A stretch of 27,245 nt of DNA from an uncultured Anaerolineae bacterium (GCA_964628875.1 CAZVQE010000002.1:1-27245), one strand, 5' to 3'; shown: positions 5,184 to 13,104, counted from the first letter of the stretch. Made by a program: numbers and translations. The notes: generated by a model not told the origin, from the letters alone.

Positions 5184-6107
5184 CTAGCGCTTGCTGCGTG
5201 GATCAAGCGCGTCGCGTAAGCCGTCACCGACGAAATTTACACACAAGACGGTGAGGAAGATCAAAAACGCGGGCGGCAAAATCACATGGTCGAGGATGCC
5301 GAGCCATGTGCTGTAGTCGGCGACGAGCTTGCCCCATGTCGGCGTATCTGACGGAAATCCGACGCCAAGAAATGACAACACTGACTCTGAGATGATGGCT
5401 TGCCCGACATTGAGCGTGGCGGCAACGACGATGGGTCCGATGGCGTTTGGCAATATGTGTGTAAACATGATTGGCAAGCGCCCTTGACCCAATGAGCGGG
5501 AGGCTTCGACAAATTCGCGTCCACGTAGCTCAAGGAATGAACTACGCACGAGACGCGCATTTGCCATCCAGTTGAGTCCGCCGATAACGGCGACGATCAT
5601 GATGAATGGACCTAAGAGCGTGCCAAAAGTCTTTGTGAGTGTTTCGCGGAAAAGAAATGAGATCAGCAAGGTGATTGGCACGGCGGGCAACGACAGAAAT
5701 AAATCGGTGATGCGCATCAGCACAAAATCCACTTTGCCGCCAAAGAAACCTGAAAATGCGCCGACGATGGTGCCAATGATCACAGCGGCTAGCATTGCGG
5801 CGATGCCGACGGCTATCGAGATGCGCCCGCCAAACAACACGCGCGCAAGCACATCGCGTCCGAGGTCGTCTGCGCCCAGCAGAGGCGAAAATGGTTTTTT
5901 GAATGCGAGGGCTGCATTTGGTTTGATCGGGTCAACGGTGTAAATAAACGGCCCTAGCATCGTAACAAGAAAGAGGATGCCAAATAACACCAAACCAAAT
6001 ATGGCAAGGCGGTTGCGTAAAAAACGCCGCCAAGCCAATTCTCCTAATGAACGGACTTTTTGCGGTTGCGCGATTGCCCTAGGAACTGCTGGAGCGAGTG
6101 TTGTCAT
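5184..6107 (-). CDS. Peptide/nickel ABC transporter permease, OppC/DppC type (start moved to ATG 6107)
   Basis: AWRRFLRNRLA, LLGADDLGRDVLARVLFGGRISI, EAA loop REFVEASRSLG..IMFTHILPN, NFVGDGLRDALDP. The ORF-track start at 6203 overlaps the upstream permease. Confidence 0.92.
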   Translation of the reverse strand: MTTLAPAVPRAIAQPQKVRSLGELAWRRFLRNRLAIFGLVLFGILFLVTMLGPFIYTVDPIKPNAALAFKKPFSPLLGADDLGRDVLARVLFGGRISIAVGIAAMLAAVIIGTIVGAFSGFFGGKVDFVLMRITDLFLSLPAVPITLLISFLFRETLTKTFGTLLGPFIMIVAVIGGLNWMANARLVRSSFLELRGREFVEASRSLGQGRLPIMFTHILPNAIGPIVVAATLNVGQAIISESVLSFLGVGFPSDTPTWGKLVADYSTWLGILDHVILPPAFLIFLTVLCVNFVGDGLRDALDPRSKR

Positions 6108-6124
6108 TATTATTAGGATTCCAA

Positions 6125-7084
6125 TTATGATAGCTTGATACGTGGGTCCAAGATGCCATAAAGCAGATCGGCGATGAGACCACAAACGACGATCAGCACA
6201 CAAAACATGAAGACGATACCCATGATGACGGGGGTGTCGCTGATTTGAATGGATTTGATGAGCAGGTCACCGATGCCATTGACGCGAAATATTTGCTCGG
6301 TGATGATTGCGCCAGCGAAGACGCCCGGTAATTGGAGCGCGATCAGCGTCACGACGGGAATCAAACTGTTGCGGAATGCGTGGCGCACGACAACAGCCCA
6401 TTCCAATAAACCTTTGGCGCGAGCCGTGCGCACATAGTCGGAAGGTAAGCTATCAAGCATCGAAGAGCGCATAAATCGAGTGAGCGCTCCTGCCTGAAAG
6501 AAGGCTAATACTGCGACAGGCATGATGCTTTGCTTAATAAGCTTCCAAAGTGAGGCGGGGTCAGTGGCTTTGAGCGTGGTGTCATAAATCATCGGCAGCC
6601 AACCGAGATATACGCTAAATACCAAGATCAGAAGAGTGCCAGTCACAAAGGTTGGCATCGAGATGCCTGCCATTGATAGCACTTGCACGATATAGCTAAA
6701 TGCGCTGCGCGGACGATAAGCCGTGTATACGCCGACGGGAATGGCGATGAGTAACGCAACTAGATAAGCTGTGCCGACGACGCCGAGCGTCTGTGGCAAG
6801 CGTTGCATGATGAGTCCTAGCACGCCGGTGCGCGCTGAGAATGAAAAGCCCCAATCACCGCGAAATATGCCGGACAGCCATAACACATAGCGGATGTACC
6901 AAGGCTGGTCAAGTCCCAATGACCGTTTAATATTTTCGCGCACTTCGAGAGGCACTTCAGGGTTTGCGGCAAACTGAGAAAGCGGATCGCCGGGCGCCAA
7001 CGCCAAAATACCGTAGATTACAAAACTCATCGCGATGAGCGTCGGAATCGAAACCAAAATACGGCTTATAAAGTAAGTGCTCAT
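6125..7084 (-). CDS. Peptide/nickel ABC transporter permease, OppB/DppB type
   Basis: LAPGDP, GLDQPW..RY..W, GDWGFS, EAA loop DYVRTARAKGL..HAFRNSL, DLLYGILDPRI. Confidence 0.93.
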   Translation of the reverse strand: MSTYFISRILVSIPTLIAMSFVIYGILALAPGDPLSQFAANPEVPLEVRENIKRSLGLDQPWYIRYVLWLSGIFRGDWGFSFSARTGVLGLIMQRLPQTLGVVGTAYLVALLIAIPVGVYTAYRPRSAFSYIVQVLSMAGISMPTFVTGTLLILVFSVYLGWLPMIYDTTLKATDPASLWKLIKQSIMPVAVLAFFQAGALTRFMRSSMLDSLPSDYVRTARAKGLLEWAVVVRHAFRNSLIPVVTLIALQLPGVFAGAIITEQIFRVNGIGDLLIKSIQISDTPVIMGIVFMFCVLIVVCGLIADLLYGILDPRIKLS

Positions 7085-7105
7085 TTTTTGTCGAGGTTAG
7101 ATTTG

Positions 7106-7150
7106 TGCAACGAGTGCAATACACATCTACTGCGCATTGCACTCGTCGCA
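7106..7150. other. Intercistronic stem-loop between SBP and permease genes
   Basis: ACGAGTGCAAT (7110-7120) pairs with ATTGCACTCGT (7136-7146). No U tract follows on the coding (minus) strand. Confidence 0.6.
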
Positions 7151-7180
7151 AACTGAATCGTTACTTGCGATTGCGGTGGA

Positions 7181-8995
7181 CTATTTGCTCCATGAAGCAA
7201 TATTCCACATTTCGCTGTCCCATGGGCTGAGCGCTACACCCTTGAGGTCTTTTGCGATTCCAGAGGGTGACTTGCGTGCAACCAATGGCACAACAATGTA
7301 GTCATTAACCAAGAGGTCGTTCATCTTCAAGACGATCTCTTTGTTCTTTGCGGCGTCGGTGGTCTTTTCGAGCTCCTCGCACAGCTTGTCAAACTCGGCA
7401 TTCTTGTAGCGCACGTTGTTTGCCTTGCGCCAGCCATTGTCCTTGCCCGCGATGTCGCGGCTGTGCCAACCACAAATGTAATCGGTAGCATCTGGTACGC
7501 CTGAGCCGTTGGTGTACATCTGGATGTCATGATAGAACTTGCCGATCGTGTCTGGACTGTTGGCATCTGTGCTGAAGTACACGCCGGCGTCCACGCTCTT
7601 TAGCTCGGTGTCAATGCCTAGTTTTGCCCAAGCCTCTTTCATCAGGGCTTGCTCTTTTTGACGCAATGGGTTGATCGAAGTAATAAAGTCAATCTTGAAC
7701 TTCTTACCATCTTTTTCTAGGATGCCATCCGCGCCTTTCTTCCAACCCGCATCCGCGAGCAACTTTGCGGCGCCATCAAAATCTGCCGTAGAGCATTTGT
7801 TGCGTCCGCCGTGCAATTGATCAGGAGCCATATAGGGCTGCCAAGTGATGATTTCGCAGGTGGGGTCACCGGCCGGTCCATACAGCGTCTCTGCCATGAC
7901 TTTGCGATCAATCACCATTGACATGGCTTGGCGCACGCGCTTGTCGCTAAAGAAGAAGTTGGTTGTGCCGACTTCGGCGCGCTTGTCACCAGCGGCGGCG
8001 GTGTTATCTGTCGTGTTAAACATGATGCGCTCTACGTTTGAACCGCTTGAGCTCATCAATGTGCCTTTGCCGCCCTGTTGCAATTGAGCCAAGACCGCGG
8101 CTTCGACTTGCAAGTTCCAACCATAGTCGGTGTCGCCCGTTTGGAACACGGCGCGCGCGGCGCTAGTAGCATCGCCACCACCCTTAAAGATCACATCCTT
8201 GAAGAAGGGCTGATCGGCGACGTGATAATTCATATTCACATCATAGGTCACCGTGTCGCCACTCTTAAATTCTTTGAGCTTATAGGGTCCTGTGCCAATA
8301 GGTGCGTTGTTTGCCTTTTGGCAGGCTTCGTCTTTGCTGGCGGCTGCGCCGATGCACTTTTCAAATTGCTTCTTTTGCAAGATGGCTGCGCCCGAGCTAA
8401 CAAAGGTCTTGTAGAAGTAACCTTGTGGAGCCTCATAAGTAATCTTTACCGTCGTAGGATCCACTGCTTCGACTTTGGTCACACCACCAAACTTGCTTGA
8501 GTTGGTGCAGCCGGTGTCTTTGTCGGTGCAATATTTCCAAGTAAAAACAACGTCATCGGCGGTGAAGTCTGTGCCATCTGTCCACTTCACGCCCTTCTTT
8601 AGCTTCCATGTAATTTCTTTGCCATCCGCCGACACGCCACCGTTGGCTTTTGTTGGAATCTCAGCCGCAAGCACAGGCACGGGGCTGCCGTTTGGAGCGA
8701 TGGCTGCCAATGGCTCGAGCATCAAGCGTGATGCGTCATAGTCCTTGGTGCCGTTTGCCAAGTGCACGTTGAGGATGGTTGGCGCCTGCCAATACAAAAT
8801 GCGCAGTGTGCCACCCGTGCCGCGCTTGCCCGTTGCCGGTGCAGCTGGCGCCGCCGGTGCGGCTGGAGCAGCGGGAGCTGCAGGCGCGGCTGGTGCCGCG
8901 GGTGCTGCAGGCTTGGCTGGCTCTGGTGTTGGCGATGCGCATGCCGCCAACACAATGGCGACCGCGCTGGTTGCAAATAACCATTGCTTATTCAT
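7181..8995 (-). CDS. Family-5 (Opp/Dpp) ABC solute-binding lipoprotein, canonical domain order (start moved to ATG 8995)
   Basis: AGGAG RBS before MNKQWLF; lipobox LAAC; GGTLRIL, WKLKKGVKWTDG..FTADDVVFTW, IGTGPYKL, DKRVRQAMSMVIDR. Confidence 0.93.
   Translation of the reverse strand: MNKQWLFATSAVAIVLAACASPTPEPAKPAAPAAPAAPAAPAAPAAPAAPAAPATGKRGTGGTLRILYWQAPTILNVHLANGTKDYDASRLMLEPLAAIAPNGSPVPVLAAEIPTKANGGVSADGKEITWKLKKGVKWTDGTDFTADDVVFTWKYCTDKDTGCTNSSKFGGVTKVEAVDPTTVKITYEAPQGYFYKTFVSSGAAILQKKQFEKCIGAAASKDEACQKANNAPIGTGPYKLKEFKSGDTVTYDVNMNYHVADQPFFKDVIFKGGGDATSAARAVFQTGDTDYGWNLQVEAAVLAQLQQGGKGTLMSSSGSNVERIMFNTTDNTAAAGDKRAEVGTTNFFFSDKRVRQAMSMVIDRKVMAETLYGPAGDPTCEIITWQPYMAPDQLHGGRNKCSTADFDGAAKLLADAGWKKGADGILEKDGKKFKIDFITSINPLRQKEQALMKEAWAKLGIDTELKSVDAGVYFSTDANSPDTIGKFYHDIQMYTNGSGVPDATDYICGWHSRDIAGKDNGWRKANNVRYKNAEFDKLCEELEKTTDAAKNKEIVLKMNDLLVNDYIVVPLVARKSPSGIAKDLKGVALSPWDSEMWNIASWSK
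8840..8911 (-). repeat. (Pro-Ala-Ala)x8 linker repeat in the SBP
   Basis: Eight 9-bp units encode PAA with almost fully diversified synonymous codons. Confidence 0.9.
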
Positions 8996-9043
8996 TTGAA
9001 ACTCTTCTCCTTGAATTAATGTTTTTAATGCGCAGAATGCAAA

Positions 9044-9124
9044 ACGCCGCAATGAAGCCACTCGACTTGTTATTCGAGGGCACTCATCGCGGCGTATGTG
9101 TTCTGAGCAATGCGCGCGATTATA
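9044..9124 (-). promoter_or_regulatory. Putative -10 box plus long leader hairpin upstream of the first SBP
   Basis: TATAAT at 9124-9119; 52-nt imperfect hairpin 9095-9044 (ACGCCGC/GCGGCGT outer stem, CTCGA/TCGAG inner stem) running into TTTT. Confidence 0.5.
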
Positions 9125-9177
9125 TACGAGTCTTTAGGATTTTTGGTGAATAAATATTGTGAGTGCCGAAATTGGTA

Positions 9178-10119
9178 TCAGGCGCGGCGTGCATCGAGCG
9201 CATCACGTAAACCATCGCCGAGTAAATTAAACGCCAATACAGTGATGATGATAGCGATGCCGGGAAATATCAGTAGATGCGGCGCGCTAAAAACGCTCGC
9301 GCGTTCGTCGCCCAGCATCAAGCCCCATTCTGGCAAAGGTGGCTGCGCACCCAAACCAAGAAACGACAAACCGGCTGCCTCAAGGATCGTCGTTGCGATT
9401 CCCAGCGTGCCCTGCACGATGATCGGTGTGAGTGAATTGGGTAGCAAGCGCGTGAAAAGGATGCGCATCTTTGAGGCGCCTAGCGCAGTAGAGGCTGATA
9501 TGAAATCTAACTCACGGATGCTGAGCACCGCCGCGCGCACGATACGCGCATAAACGGGAATCGAAACGATGCCGACGGCGAGTAGCGTGTTAATTAGTCC
9601 GTTGCCTAGCACGGTGACGATGGCAATCGCGAGTAGCAAACTCGGAAACGCCAACAGCACGTCCATGATGCGCATGATGATGTTGTCAAGCCAGCCGCCG
9701 ACATAGCCCGCAATTGCGCCCAATAGCGTGCCGATCAAGATCGCAAAACCTGTCGTGACGAATCCGATTTGCAAAGACAAGCGCGATCCGTAAATCACGC
9801 GCGAAAAAACGTCGCGCCTGTTGCTGTCGAGTCCAAAGAGTGACTCGGGTTTATCCGCATCGCAACCACCCAAAATATGCACACACGGCGCGTATCGCGT
9901 CGTCGTGCCGGGTATGCGAATTTGATCTTCGTAACTGTGAGGTGCAATAAAGTCCGCAAAGATGGCGACAAACACAACAAATCCGAGCAGCGCCATTCCA
10001 ATCTGTGCCGAGTGGTGTCGCAATAGCCGCCGCATCATGCGGCGAAATGGCGATTGTGTTTTGACCTTTGACGCGGCGTGAATCGAAGCGGATGAGGATG
10101 TGGCAGTGGCTAAACGCAT
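9178..10119 (-). CDS. Peptide ABC transporter permease, DppC type
   Basis: RDVFSRVIYGSRLSL, IIMRIMDVLLAFPSLLLAI, EAA loop DFISASTALG..ILFTRLLPN, NLLGDGLRDALD. Confidence 0.93.
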   Translation of the reverse strand: MRLATATSSSASIHAASKVKTQSPFRRMMRRLLRHHSAQIGMALLGFVVFVAIFADFIAPHSYEDQIRIPGTTTRYAPCVHILGGCDADKPESLFGLDSNRRDVFSRVIYGSRLSLQIGFVTTGFAILIGTLLGAIAGYVGGWLDNIIMRIMDVLLAFPSLLLAIAIVTVLGNGLINTLLAVGIVSIPVYARIVRAAVLSIRELDFISASTALGASKMRILFTRLLPNSLTPIIVQGTLGIATTILEAAGLSFLGLGAQPPLPEWGLMLGDERASVFSAPHLLIFPGIAIIITVLAFNLLGDGLRDALDARRA

Positions 10120-10136
10120 GATTTTGCTGATGTCAT

Positions 10137-11213
10137 TTATTGCACGCGGATGCGCGGATTCAAATAAGCGTACGAAAAGTCCACAGCCAGATTCACCAAA
10201 ACAAACATGAGCGCAATCACAACTGTAAAGCCTTGTACGACGGGATAGTCGCGTGACAAGATTGCGTCAATGAGTTTGGTGCCCATGCCGGGCAGCGCAA
10301 AGGTCGTCTCGGTCAGCACTGCGCCCGACAGCAAGCCGCCAAATTGCAAACCGATGACGGTCACAATGGGGACGAGAGCATTACGAAATGCGTGCTTCAT
10401 GATGACCACCCACTCGCGCAGTCCTTTGGCGCGCGCGACTCGGATGTAGTCTTGTGTAAAGACATCAAGCATAGCGGCGCGGGTCATGCGCGCGATGATG
10501 GCTAATGAGACTGTGCCAACTGTGACCGTCGGCAATATAAGGTGTCGTAGCGCATCAACAAAAACATTCCATTTGCCCTGTATCGCGCTGTTGAGCAACA
10601 CCGAGTTAGACGCAAACAGCAGGATGAATCGGCGCGCACCTTCGGGGTTTTCGATGTTCCAGTATTTCAGCAGTGAGGGCAGGTCCGTGCCGGGTTGTAG
10701 GCGCGCCGAGGGCGGCAATTGCAATGGCGTGCCAGCCAATGTGAGCGCAAAAAAATAAGCGAGTAAGAGCCCAAGCCAAAAAATCGGCATTGAGATGCCC
10801 ACATTTGCAAAAACCATTGAGGCAATATCAACGGCGCTGTTGTGCCGCACCGCTGAGATGACCCCCAGCGTGACCCCAAGCATCGTCGAAAATAATGTCG
10901 CAAAAACGGTCAGTTCAATGGTCATCGGCAGGCGTTCGGCAATGACGTCAGTGACAGCACGGCCTTCTTTGATCGAGTTGCCGAGGTCGCCCTGCGCCAA
11001 ATTCTGCAGATAGCGCCCAAATTGGACGGGGATGCTGTCATTCAAGCCAAAGCGCTCCTTAAATGCAAAGCACTTTTCTGGTGTGGCTTTTTCGCCGAGC
11101 ATCACGACGCATGGATCGCCCGGAATCAAACGCGCCAGCGTAAATGTCATCACCAAGATGCCTATAAGTACGGGAATGAGTAGCGCCATTCGGCGTATGA
11201 GAAATTGCGACAT
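10137..11213 (-). CDS. Peptide ABC transporter permease, DppB type
   Basis: LIPGDP, GDLGNSI, RLPMTIEL, HLILPTVT, EAA loop DYIRVARAKGL..HAFRNAL, RDYPVVQG, LNPRIR. Confidence 0.93.
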   Translation of the reverse strand: MSQFLIRRMALLIPVLIGILVMTFTLARLIPGDPCVVMLGEKATPEKCFAFKERFGLNDSIPVQFGRYLQNLAQGDLGNSIKEGRAVTDVIAERLPMTIELTVFATLFSTMLGVTLGVISAVRHNSAVDIASMVFANVGISMPIFWLGLLLAYFFALTLAGTPLQLPPSARLQPGTDLPSLLKYWNIENPEGARRFILLFASNSVLLNSAIQGKWNVFVDALRHLILPTVTVGTVSLAIIARMTRAAMLDVFTQDYIRVARAKGLREWVVIMKHAFRNALVPIVTVIGLQFGGLLSGAVLTETTFALPGMGTKLIDAILSRDYPVVQGFTVVIALMFVLVNLAVDFSYAYLNPRIRVQ

Positions 11214-11275: not shown

Positions 11276-13030
11276 TTATTTCTTGGCGTTCAAAAAGTCG
11301 CCGAAGTAGCCGCTCCAATACTCAAACGTGCCGGTGTCACCCTTGTGCAGGGGGTGTGAGGCATCCCACATGCGCGCAAATGACAACACAACATCATTGG
11401 CATCCAATACTGCGCCATTGGTGAATTTCACACCCTTGCGGAGGGTGAATGTCCACTCGGTCGCGTCTGGATTGGCTTTGTATTCCGTAGCCAATTGCGG
11501 CGCCAATTCCACCGTGCCTGGCTTGAAGCCAAGCAGTTGCTCGTAGATCTGACCGCACGCGCTAAAGGTCTCACCGTCGCTCTCGTCTGCGCAATCGAGG
11601 CTGATCGGCTCAGCCGCTTGCACGTAAACAAAGGTGTCCTTCGCGCCTTTCATCTTCGAATACTCATTTGGCGTCAGCGGGTTGGCGTGTGCGCCATCAA
11701 CTGAGGCTTGAAATGCCTGAGCCGAGTAGCCATGAGCCACTGGAATCATCGGCACGTGCGTCTTGAGCAATTCATTCAGTTTGTCATACGCGGCTTGGCG
11801 CTTGGCGCCATCGCTGTTGGTTGCGCCGATCTTGATCTGCTCAAGGATGTCTGGGAACGGCTTCCCAAATTGCTTGCTGCCTGTGCCAAAGTGATAGTCA
11901 AAAAAGTTGGTCGCATCCGGATAGTCCGCGCCCCAACCCAGCAAATAAAATGGCTCTTCGCCGGCTGACGCGCTCTTGATAAACGTGCCGCTCTCCTTCG
12001 GGGTCAGCTTCACCTTGACGCCGATTTGCTTGAGCTGTGCCTGAATCTCTTGCGCAACTTTGGCGGGCGAGGGCAAGTACACGCGCACGACTTCGCGGTA
12101 GCTCAGCGGCACTTCTTGATTGAAGTCGAATTTGGCTTCCTCGAGCAATGCTTTGGCTTTCTTGGCGTCAAAGTCCGACCACGGAATATTTGGCGACGCA
12201 CCCGGCTTAAAGCTGGGCGGCACGAAATTCGTCGCCACCAATGAACCGGCTGGATAGTAGTCATCTACGATCTTCTTGCGGTCGAGCGCCATTGCAAATG
12301 CTTGGCGCACTTTCTCATTGTTAAATGGCGCTTTGTCAACTTGGAAGCCAACATACATGATGTTGAGTGGCTCGACAGGCACGAGTTTGAGCTTGGCGTC
12401 CTTCTTGACCGCGTCAAAATCTTCGGTCGCAACCTTTTCGATGCCGTCGGCGTTGCCCGACTTTAGCTCGAGCAGCGCTTGAGCGGCTTCTTTGCTCCAG
12501 CGCAATACAAGCCCTTTGTTTTTGAGCGCGCCGCCCCACCAATCTGAGTTGGCTTCAAACGTCAGGCTGTCGCCGCGCTTCCACTCTTTGAGCTTGTATG
12601 GGCCCGTGCCGATGGCCATATCGTTGATCTTCTTGGCGTCGCCGCCGGTCTTCTCCAGCACATCCTTTTGGAGAATGGCAAATGCGGAGGTCGTGACCTT
12701 ATATGGCAGCGCAGGGTCTGGATCGCACACGGTGAACTTCACCGTATTCGCATCAATAGCTTCGATGGATTTCATCGCTCCGCCATACTTGCAGTCAGGC
12801 GCAGCTACCTTCATGCCCTTAAACTCAGCGGGCTTGGGCGCGTCGGTTGGCTTGGGGGCTGCGGTCGGCGCGGGCGCAGTTGTTGGCGCAGGCGCTGCGG
12901 TTGGCGCCGCAGGCTTCGGAGCATCGGTTGGCTTTGGCGCTGCGGTCGGCGTGGGTGACGCGCATGCTGCCAAAACCATCGAGGTCGCCGCAATCATTCC
13001 AGCGACCGTCATCACTCGGTTTTGTTTCAT
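11276..13030 (-). CDS. DppA-like family-5 ABC solute-binding lipoprotein, circularly permuted
   Basis: AAGGAG RBS, lipobox LAAC, Pro/Thr/Ala linker, IGTGPYKLKEW and KVRQAFAMALDR. The usual N-terminal block (TFVY..EPxSLD, IYEQL, WTFTLRKGVKF.NG..LDANDVVLSF) is at the C-terminus. Confidence 0.92.
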   Translation of the reverse strand: MKQNRVMTVAGMIAATSMVLAACASPTPTAAPKPTDAPKPAAPTAAPAPTTAPAPTAAPKPTDAPKPAEFKGMKVAAPDCKYGGAMKSIEAIDANTVKFTVCDPDPALPYKVTTSAFAILQKDVLEKTGGDAKKINDMAIGTGPYKLKEWKRGDSLTFEANSDWWGGALKNKGLVLRWSKEAAQALLELKSGNADGIEKVATEDFDAVKKDAKLKLVPVEPLNIMYVGFQVDKAPFNNEKVRQAFAMALDRKKIVDDYYPAGSLVATNFVPPSFKPGASPNIPWSDFDAKKAKALLEEAKFDFNQEVPLSYREVVRVYLPSPAKVAQEIQAQLKQIGVKVKLTPKESGTFIKSASAGEEPFYLLGWGADYPDATNFFDYHFGTGSKQFGKPFPDILEQIKIGATNSDGAKRQAAYDKLNELLKTHVPMIPVAHGYSAQAFQASVDGAHANPLTPNEYSKMKGAKDTFVYVQAAEPISLDCADESDGETFSACGQIYEQLLGFKPGTVELAPQLATEYKANPDATEWTFTLRKGVKFTNGAVLDANDVVLSFARMWDASHPLHKGDTGTFEYWSGYFGDFLNAKK

Positions 13031-13063
13031 TCTATTTTCTCCTTCTGTTGATTAACAAAAACA

Positions 13064-13104
13064 CGCGAGCGACATCGCTCGCGCACTAAAGCAAAAACAT
13101 TATA
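13064..13104 (-). promoter_or_regulatory. Putative -10 box plus short leader hairpin upstream of the second SBP
   Basis: TATAAT at 13104-13099; CGCGAGCG-atgt-CGCTCGCG (13083-13064) followed by TGTTTTTGTT. Confidence 0.45.

Follow-up and report, generated by a model that had tools for sequence, protein, structure and literature searches.

The question raised by this locus is whether a solute-binding protein (SBP) can begin in the middle of its own fold and close with what should be its N-terminus. We encountered such a chain in a 27,245-nucleotide stretch of DNA from an uncultured Anaerolineae bacterium (hereafter ‘the window’, meaning the whole of that stretch), in a gene that occupies positions 11276..13030 of the minus strand, stop codon included, and that encodes, exactly as the initial annotation had read it, an open reading frame of 584 amino acids. 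From the ORF list, Pfam matches and swapped-order alignments with DppA and HbpA, we see that the gene product is a DppA-type (Pfam PF00496, cluster C) solute-binding lipoprotein with a circularly permuted chain. Our explanation taken as a whole, i.e. a functional, membrane-tethered SBP of an Opp/Dpp-type ABC importer whose chain is naturally permuted, we hold to be highly probable.

Working from the 5′ end of the gene downwards (all features being on the minus strand), a Shine-Dalgarno-like GGAG, read from the sequence at 13039..13042, is located 8 nt 5′ of the ATG at 13030, supporting Met1 as the start. The translation opens with a signal peptide and an L-A-A-C lipobox ending in Cys23 (amino acids 1–23; 12962..13030), a region for which alignment A1 gives the family consensus ..SLxLAAC... 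This is followed by a flexible Pro/Ala/Thr-rich tether (amino acids 24–70; 12821..12961), recognised by its composition and by pLDDT values below 50 at residues 20–65. The first part of the folded protein, here called segment B (amino acids 71–457; 11660..12820), corresponds to canonical DppA ~119/125–501, by phmmer to 1dpe and VIA-align on 1dpp; it begins with the second half of domain II, continues through domain I and lobe 2 to the final strand of domain I, and contains Cys80, Cys102, Arg316 and Asp369. A short joint, in which the old C- and N-termini meet (amino acids 458–466; 11633..11659), is defined by the mapping onto DppA, by junction alignments and by bridging contigs, and is both ordered (pLDDT 91–95) and of constant length across the family. 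The chain ends with segment A (amino acids 467–584; 11279..11632), equivalent to canonical DppA 3–118 plus a tail (phmmer to 1dpe 3–118, i-E 5e-12; pLDDT 82–98); this supplies the first strand of domain I, the first half of domain II and a conserved, 9-residue C-terminal tail, with Cys480 and Cys492 both falling within it.

Upstream of the gene, ~30 nt from the ribosome-binding site, the same strand carries a strong hairpin, GC-rich and of 12 pairs, with a T-run after it (window 13060-13087); this could terminate the membrane-protein gene that lies upstream, or else serve the transporter operon as a leader / attenuator. We also find a database version of the protein (P0001, 499 aa; 100% identity, 85% coverage) that starts at Met86; we judge this entry to be truncated because homologues conserve residues 77–85 upstream of Met86, including the invariant Cys80. 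With the later start everything up to and including the conserved Cys80 segment is lost, signal peptide and tether alike (window 12773-13030 region), and annotation pipelines may systematically mis-start or split permuted members of the family.

The rearrangement itself is apparent from comparison with canonical relatives. PF00496 matches the window protein strongly (E 2e-81; 274 bits versus a Pfam cut-off of 32.4) and in two stretches, the split SBP_bac_5 match that a profile search had been expected to give; in phmmer alignments with PDB chains, every close relative also produces two stretches, with their order swapped. For HbpA, query residues 465–573 align with 8–123 (i-E 3e-13) and 85–452 with 130–502 (i-E 1.5e-44), whilst for E. 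coli DppA (1dpe, mature numbering) residues 467–575 align with 3–118 and 87–457 with 125–501 (E-values of ~1e-12 and ~1e-40, respectively). The correspondences from which the permutation was originally proposed all reappear in these alignments: the start within an internal region of DppA (MKSIEAID.. matching ..SEVKKVDDNTVQF), the normal C-terminal strand (VDGAHANPL matching VKGYVVDPL) and the continuation of the chain into the normal N-terminus (DTFVYVQ.., matching that of DppA). At this last point DppA 507 (query 463) leads to DppA 3 (query 467) with ~3 residues between.

The DppA chain is covered once, by 3–118 and 121/125–507, with no duplicated part. Only ~6 residues at the cut (DppA 119–124) have no sequence match, at most ~6 being unaccounted for. 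Two contiguous segments, exchanged in order, covering the full chain without duplication, are what defines a natural circular permutant; the canonical topology, in which the N-terminal strand of domain I comes first and its C-terminal strand last, is not the one followed here. The neighbouring SBP (7181-9061) does have the canonical order, as had been noted, giving a single collinear Pfam stretch and aligning with the window protein in swapped order. The NCBIfam model DppA_dipep scores 202 bits against the window protein, far under its equivalog cut-off of 1005, so that it is not a DppA orthologue.

An AlphaFold2 model, for which 33 homologues were used, has high confidence (pLDDT 86.3, pTM 0.80; residues 70–584 mostly >90). 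Its residues 83–463 form a bilobed three-domain fold that superposes on solved cluster C members (for 1dpp 121–507, Z 29.4 and rmsd 2.8 Å over 380 residues; VIA-align); Foldseek provides the same picture (best E 1e-28), and the structural neighbours returned by both programs all belong to cluster C. None of the best 50 solved chains aligns with the model past residue 465 in VIA-align, and the last 120 residues are predicted, from the AlphaFold model together with sequence homology, to take up the positions of DppA 3–118 in three dimensions. The path of the chain would then run from the middle of accessory domain II to domain I, through lobe 2 and back to domain I, across the joint of the old termini (~3 residues) and into the first half of domain II; the chain start, on the domain limits that we take DppA and OppA to have, shifting from domain I to accessory domain II.

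In cluster C proteins, lobe 1 consists of the first ~260–290 residues plus the C-terminal tail (PMC10924461), and the same source confirms the premise that the native N- and C-termini are close together in one domain. By these limits the cut at DppA 119–124 is inside lobe 1; the new N-terminus therefore stays in lobe 1, and the suggestion that the tether had moved to another lobe has to be given up. The same position of the cut leaves both hinge crossings between the lobes untouched, so that ‘Venus-flytrap’ closure should work as it does in DppA.

Both of the new chain ends are conserved. In alignment A1 the new N-terminus reads APDC.YGG (A77, C80, Y82, G83, G84) and the new C-terminus F.G..LN (F576, G577, L580, N581). 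Cys80 and Cys102 are found together in 162 of 175 family members; Cys480 and Cys492 are both present in 156 of the 175, both absent in 17 and discordant in 2. Canonical relatives have no Cys opposite Cys102 and, a few exceptions aside, none opposite Cys80, and the DppA and HbpA alignments place no Cys opposite either Cys480 or Cys492. Such a pattern is consistent with Cys80–Cys102 and Cys480–Cys492 being two candidate family-specific disulfides, the former of which would pin the first strand and the new N-terminal segment together. The initial annotation had both pairs perhaps stabilising the new ends; this fits Cys80–Cys102, located at the new N-terminus, but not Cys480–Cys492, which lies 15–27 residues past the joint of the old termini.

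Directly downstream of the permuted gene, and also on the minus strand, are the genes of its two cognate permease partners: one of DppB/OppB-type (10137..11213; Pfam BPD_transp_1 + BPD_transp_1_N) and one of DppC/OppC-type (9178..10119; Pfam BPD_transp_1 + OppC_N), the latter assigned also by conserved synteny. The permuted SBP is followed by orthologues of these permeases (permB/permC) in 73 of 80 related loci, with 50–78% identity for all three genes, and across the 80 loci SBP, permB and permC diverge in step; co-encoding with OppB/C- or DppB/C-type permeases is thus seen well beyond the window. Neither of the SBP–permease modules in the window contains ATPase genes; two OppD/F-type ATPase pairs are found on other contigs (C59 and C190) of the same genome. 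We picture a protein that would be exported via Sec, lipidated at Cys23 and left hanging from its ~45-residue Pro/Ala-rich tether, from which the loaded SBP would dock on the DppB/DppC-like permeases encoded directly downstream, with energy probably supplied by the OppD/F-type ATPases encoded on the other contigs. As a side observation, window 5184-11213 shows two tandem SBP–permease–permease modules, one SBP being permuted and the other canonical. In metatranscriptome runs we recovered only 6–16% of the gene's sampled words, and these possibly from relatives.

What might such an importer carry? Arg316 and Asp369 align with Arg355 and Asp408 of DppA; both are invariant in alignment A1 and are present in 147 and 154, respectively, of the 175 family members. 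In DppA these two residues grip the dipeptide by its carboxylate and its ammonium end. With their equivalents conserved, the ligand is likely to be a dipeptide or a similarly short, peptide-like molecule. We conclude that the window protein is most probably a working, tethered SBP of a peptide-type importer; that its ligand is dipeptide-like is the likeliest reading, and one we hold with moderate confidence. There is an appreciable, although less than even, chance that it serves a working importer with a different cargo, for which candidates would be glutathione or longer peptides, compounds resembling haem or an opine, and metallophores. In favour of this, SapA and the glutathione- and haem-binding HbpA/GbpA stand alongside DppA among the best solved relatives, family-5 SBPs are very diverse in the ligands they bind, and identity to DppA is just ~25%; set against this, close relatives without exception keep the counterparts of Arg355 and Asp408 of DppA.

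A second possibility is that the protein acts mainly as a sensor or receptor, in signalling or chemotaxis, rather than as a component of a transporter. E. coli DppA also serves as a chemoreceptor, and its double role lends this reading some weight. Close homologues of the permuted module are moreover found at the C-terminus of membrane proteins with an N-terminal Ser/Thr kinase, caspase + FHA or TIR part, or preceded by another SBP family (Peripla_BP_6, SBP_bac_3), an arrangement that suggests use of the module as an extracellular sensor in those fusions. The window gene, however, encodes a stand-alone lipoprotein directly before DppB/DppC-type permeases, an order kept in the 73 of 80 loci already described, and we regard a mainly sensory role for it as improbable. 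The fusion proteins seen are P0124, P0128, P0156, P0133, P0145, P0131, P0126 and P0141; of these, P0124 is the only one in which we read a transmembrane segment separating the two parts.

Our preferred reading, that of a working importer component, draws further on the breadth of the family. A word-indexed protein search returned 120 full-length collinear homologues at 51–76% identity, and an exhaustive search of 50%-identity representatives added ~100 further collinear clusters, down to ~30% identity. For the survey the query was divided in two, segment A standing for the canonical N-part and segment B for what remains; of the proteins fetched, 234 have the order B-A and 21 the order A-B. A junction profile, run on a sample of 401 genomes from the phylum, gives junction-spanning matches in ~60, with a concentration in the class of the window plus three further families; a scan of species-representative genomes, with a profile made from a closer alignment set (A3), finds at least 569 loci encoding the permuted form. 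Among the best 80 of these, all those with a taxon name belong to Chloroflexota. Named carriers include Thermoflexus, Roseilinea, Leptolinea, Anaerolinea, Bellilinea, Caldilinea and Ardenticatenia, with Leptolinea isolates amongst them; Leptolinea sp. HRD-7, whose genome is complete, and the type strain L. tardivitalis YMTK-2 both carry the gene. The junction region is near-constant in length (135–138 residues across 40 diverse members). In the source genome there is no second permuted copy, its other family-5 genes being canonical in order.

Two further arrangements deserve mention. Extra permuted SBP copies (57% identity) occur at Thermoflexus loci L034-L038 and L055, at which tblastn (E 1e-20) finds no match to a DppB/C-like permease; these are possible orphan binding proteins, L036 being a 2.6-kb contig that says little. 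At locus L063:5002-8634, two tandem permuted SBP genes, whose products are 51% and 46% identical to the window protein, precede a single permB/permC pair.

The same survey bears on whether the gene is functional at all. Tandem SBP genes and A-B-A-B fusions (see below) do occur in the clade, and from these one could imagine the window gene as the decaying, non-functional remnant of a tandem duplication that happens to have kept an open frame; but the architecture persists at 30–80% identity over ~100 clusters at 50% identity, with invariant ligand-contact residues, conserved new termini, coupled Cys pairs, stable permease synteny and a confident fold prediction, and we consider decay very improbable indeed. 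Contigs from three independent activated-sludge / wastewater metagenome studies cross the joint (nt 11633-11659) with 0–2 mismatches. An assembly chimera, in which the 3′ part of one SBP gene was joined to the 5′ part of another in an order absent from any cell, might be suspected of a fragmented MAG (471 contigs, 87.6% completeness) with numerous family-5 SBP paralogues, but is rejected, its residual likelihood being negligible, by these bridging contigs, by hundreds of homologues, some of them from isolates and one from a complete genome, in which this joint recurs without change of length, and by an open reading frame whose joint is conserved and confidently modelled. We are left with a heritable, conserved arrangement, free of assembly or annotation artefact, and with the central proposal of the initial annotation, a natural circular permutant of a DppA-type family-5 SBP, fully supported.

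How the order arose can be approached from its relatives. When the sequences are re-ordered and a tree is built from them, 82 B-A representatives group in one well-supported clade and the canonical relatives in another (the tree being unrooted). Constraining the B-A and derived forms to a single origin gives p-AU 0.996 and a likelihood better by 134 lnL than that of a short free search, again on an unrooted tree; as far as these sequence comparisons go, a single origin of the B-A order is not rejected. The several origins suggested by a quick free tree we do not claim, given that the constrained single-origin tree scored better.

Within the same clade we see A-B-A-B tandem fusions with a B-to-A joint as long as that of the permuted family. 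In one of them, P0152, the two copies are each other's closest relatives and the joint again has the family length. The family also includes a second-order circular permutant (P0122/P0274, 575 aa; 54% identity to the window protein) whose path starts at query ~306, passes through the family joint and ends at query ~300. In this form the window-type cut is bridged by a linker of 15 residues, in which Cys80 and Cys102 are both retained; its own cut is in lobe 2, and it is there that the tether attaches. It is encoded at loci L072:5698-7218 and L099:3-1343 in the same operon slot, before permB/permC. Fusions and re-permuted forms are what a duplication-and-truncation route predicts, and from these extant architectures, and within the limits of an unrooted tree, we infer duplication followed by truncation as the order of events. 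The permuted order would most likely have had one origin within Chloroflexota, by in-frame tandem duplication (A-B-A-B) and then loss of the outer parts, the SBP having probably been inherited together with its permeases since. Separately, P0152 (1202 aa), P0256 (1036 aa), P0250 (2843 aa) and P0243 (3461 aa) each carry two to four tandem family-5 modules (A-B-A-B and longer) in one polypeptide; these look like extant versions of the fused intermediates that can give rise to permutants.

Among ABC-importer receptors, no class is larger or better studied than the cluster C SBPs, and their solved structures have, as far as we have checked, one chain topology throughout. In searches of the open-access literature we found no natural permutation of a cluster C, family-5 or oligopeptide-binding protein, and thus no published description of a permuted cluster C SBP; AlphaFold DB and NCBI entries for family members carry generic names only. 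The closest canonical comparisons are with DppA of E. coli / Yersinia (1DPP, 1DPE, 5F1Q, 8Z1Y) and HbpA/GbpA of Haemophilus (3TPA, 3M8U), which belong to the same Pfam family (PF00496) and to cluster C. They share the fold of residues 83–463 (Z 29–30, rmsd 2.5–2.8 Å), the Arg355/Asp408 equivalents and DppB/DppC-type permeases; they differ in that the window protein places DppA 1–118 after 125–507, with its termini in domain II and the old ends fused through ~3 residues, and in that it has a lipid anchor, a long Pro/Ala tether, two Cys pairs and an operon without ATPase genes.

Natural permutation of a binding protein is already known from cluster B. TpMglB-2 (Tp0684) of Treponema pallidum is a glucose-binding lipoprotein, naturally circularly permuted with ligand binding kept, and was described as ‘Type Ic / Cluster Bc’ (PMC4990184); the permutation described there is of a cluster B protein only, and among natural SBP permutants it is the one precedent that our literature search returned. 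Like the window protein it is a permuted, ABC-transporter-associated binding lipoprotein, but it binds sugar, belongs to cluster B and another Pfam family, and gains a fourth hinge crossing by its permutation, whereas the cut in the window protein is inside domain II and should leave its two hinge segments unchanged. With PF00496 as its sole Pfam match, the window protein, although it would work in a similar way, falls outside cluster Bc, the hallmarks of which are a cluster B Peripla_BP-type fold and the fourth crossing. The authors of that study found the permuted form mostly in organisms with tethered binding proteins, and asked whether the tether might be what favoured it (PMC4990184).

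Tethering also matters in the M. tuberculosis DppABCD complex, in which the N-terminal loop and lipid anchor of DppA contact DppB and are reported prerequisites for assembly (PMC10954201). Mtb DppA is likewise a lipid-anchored cluster C SBP with DppB/DppC-type permeases, and one that cannot diffuse away (PMC10954201); in the window protein, by contrast, the N-terminus leaves the fold from another domain and via a much longer flexible linker, from which it follows that the Mtb-type contact with DppB cannot form in the same way. The use of engineered permuted binding proteins in biosensors (e.g. PMC6335823) depends on the fold accepting new termini once the native ends are joined; those are laboratory-made and mostly of cluster B, D or F, whereas the family described here is natural, ancient and phylum-wide.

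In practical terms, profile annotation splits the domain and one gene caller cut the gene at Met86, and the family marks a naturally tolerated permutation site, useful for biosensor design on peptide-binding scaffolds. Whether the permutation is adaptive rather than neutral, through relocation of the chain start from a strand in the core of domain I to the accessory domain II surface, is a more speculative matter; we think it unlikely. If adaptive, the move could allow a lipid, a transmembrane helix or upstream domains to carry the module with no load placed on the hinge or on the domain I sheet. This would explain replacement of the canonical form in a whole Chloroflexota transporter lineage, re-permutation via tandem fusions and recruitment by Ser/Thr kinases, caspase-FHA and TIR proteins as their extracellular sensor; the SBP would also dock on the permease, and be tethered there, in a geometry unlike that of M. 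tuberculosis DppABCD. Given the role of the anchor in that complex, the relocated, long-tethered N-terminus is of mechanistic interest, and the question of the tether bears in turn on the M. tuberculosis complex itself, where anchor and N-terminal loop are reported to be required. Taken together, a phylum-wide permutant with its tandem-fusion and re-permuted relatives provides a natural series that bears on how the fold assembles, on what the tether point contributes to docking and on how permutations originate.
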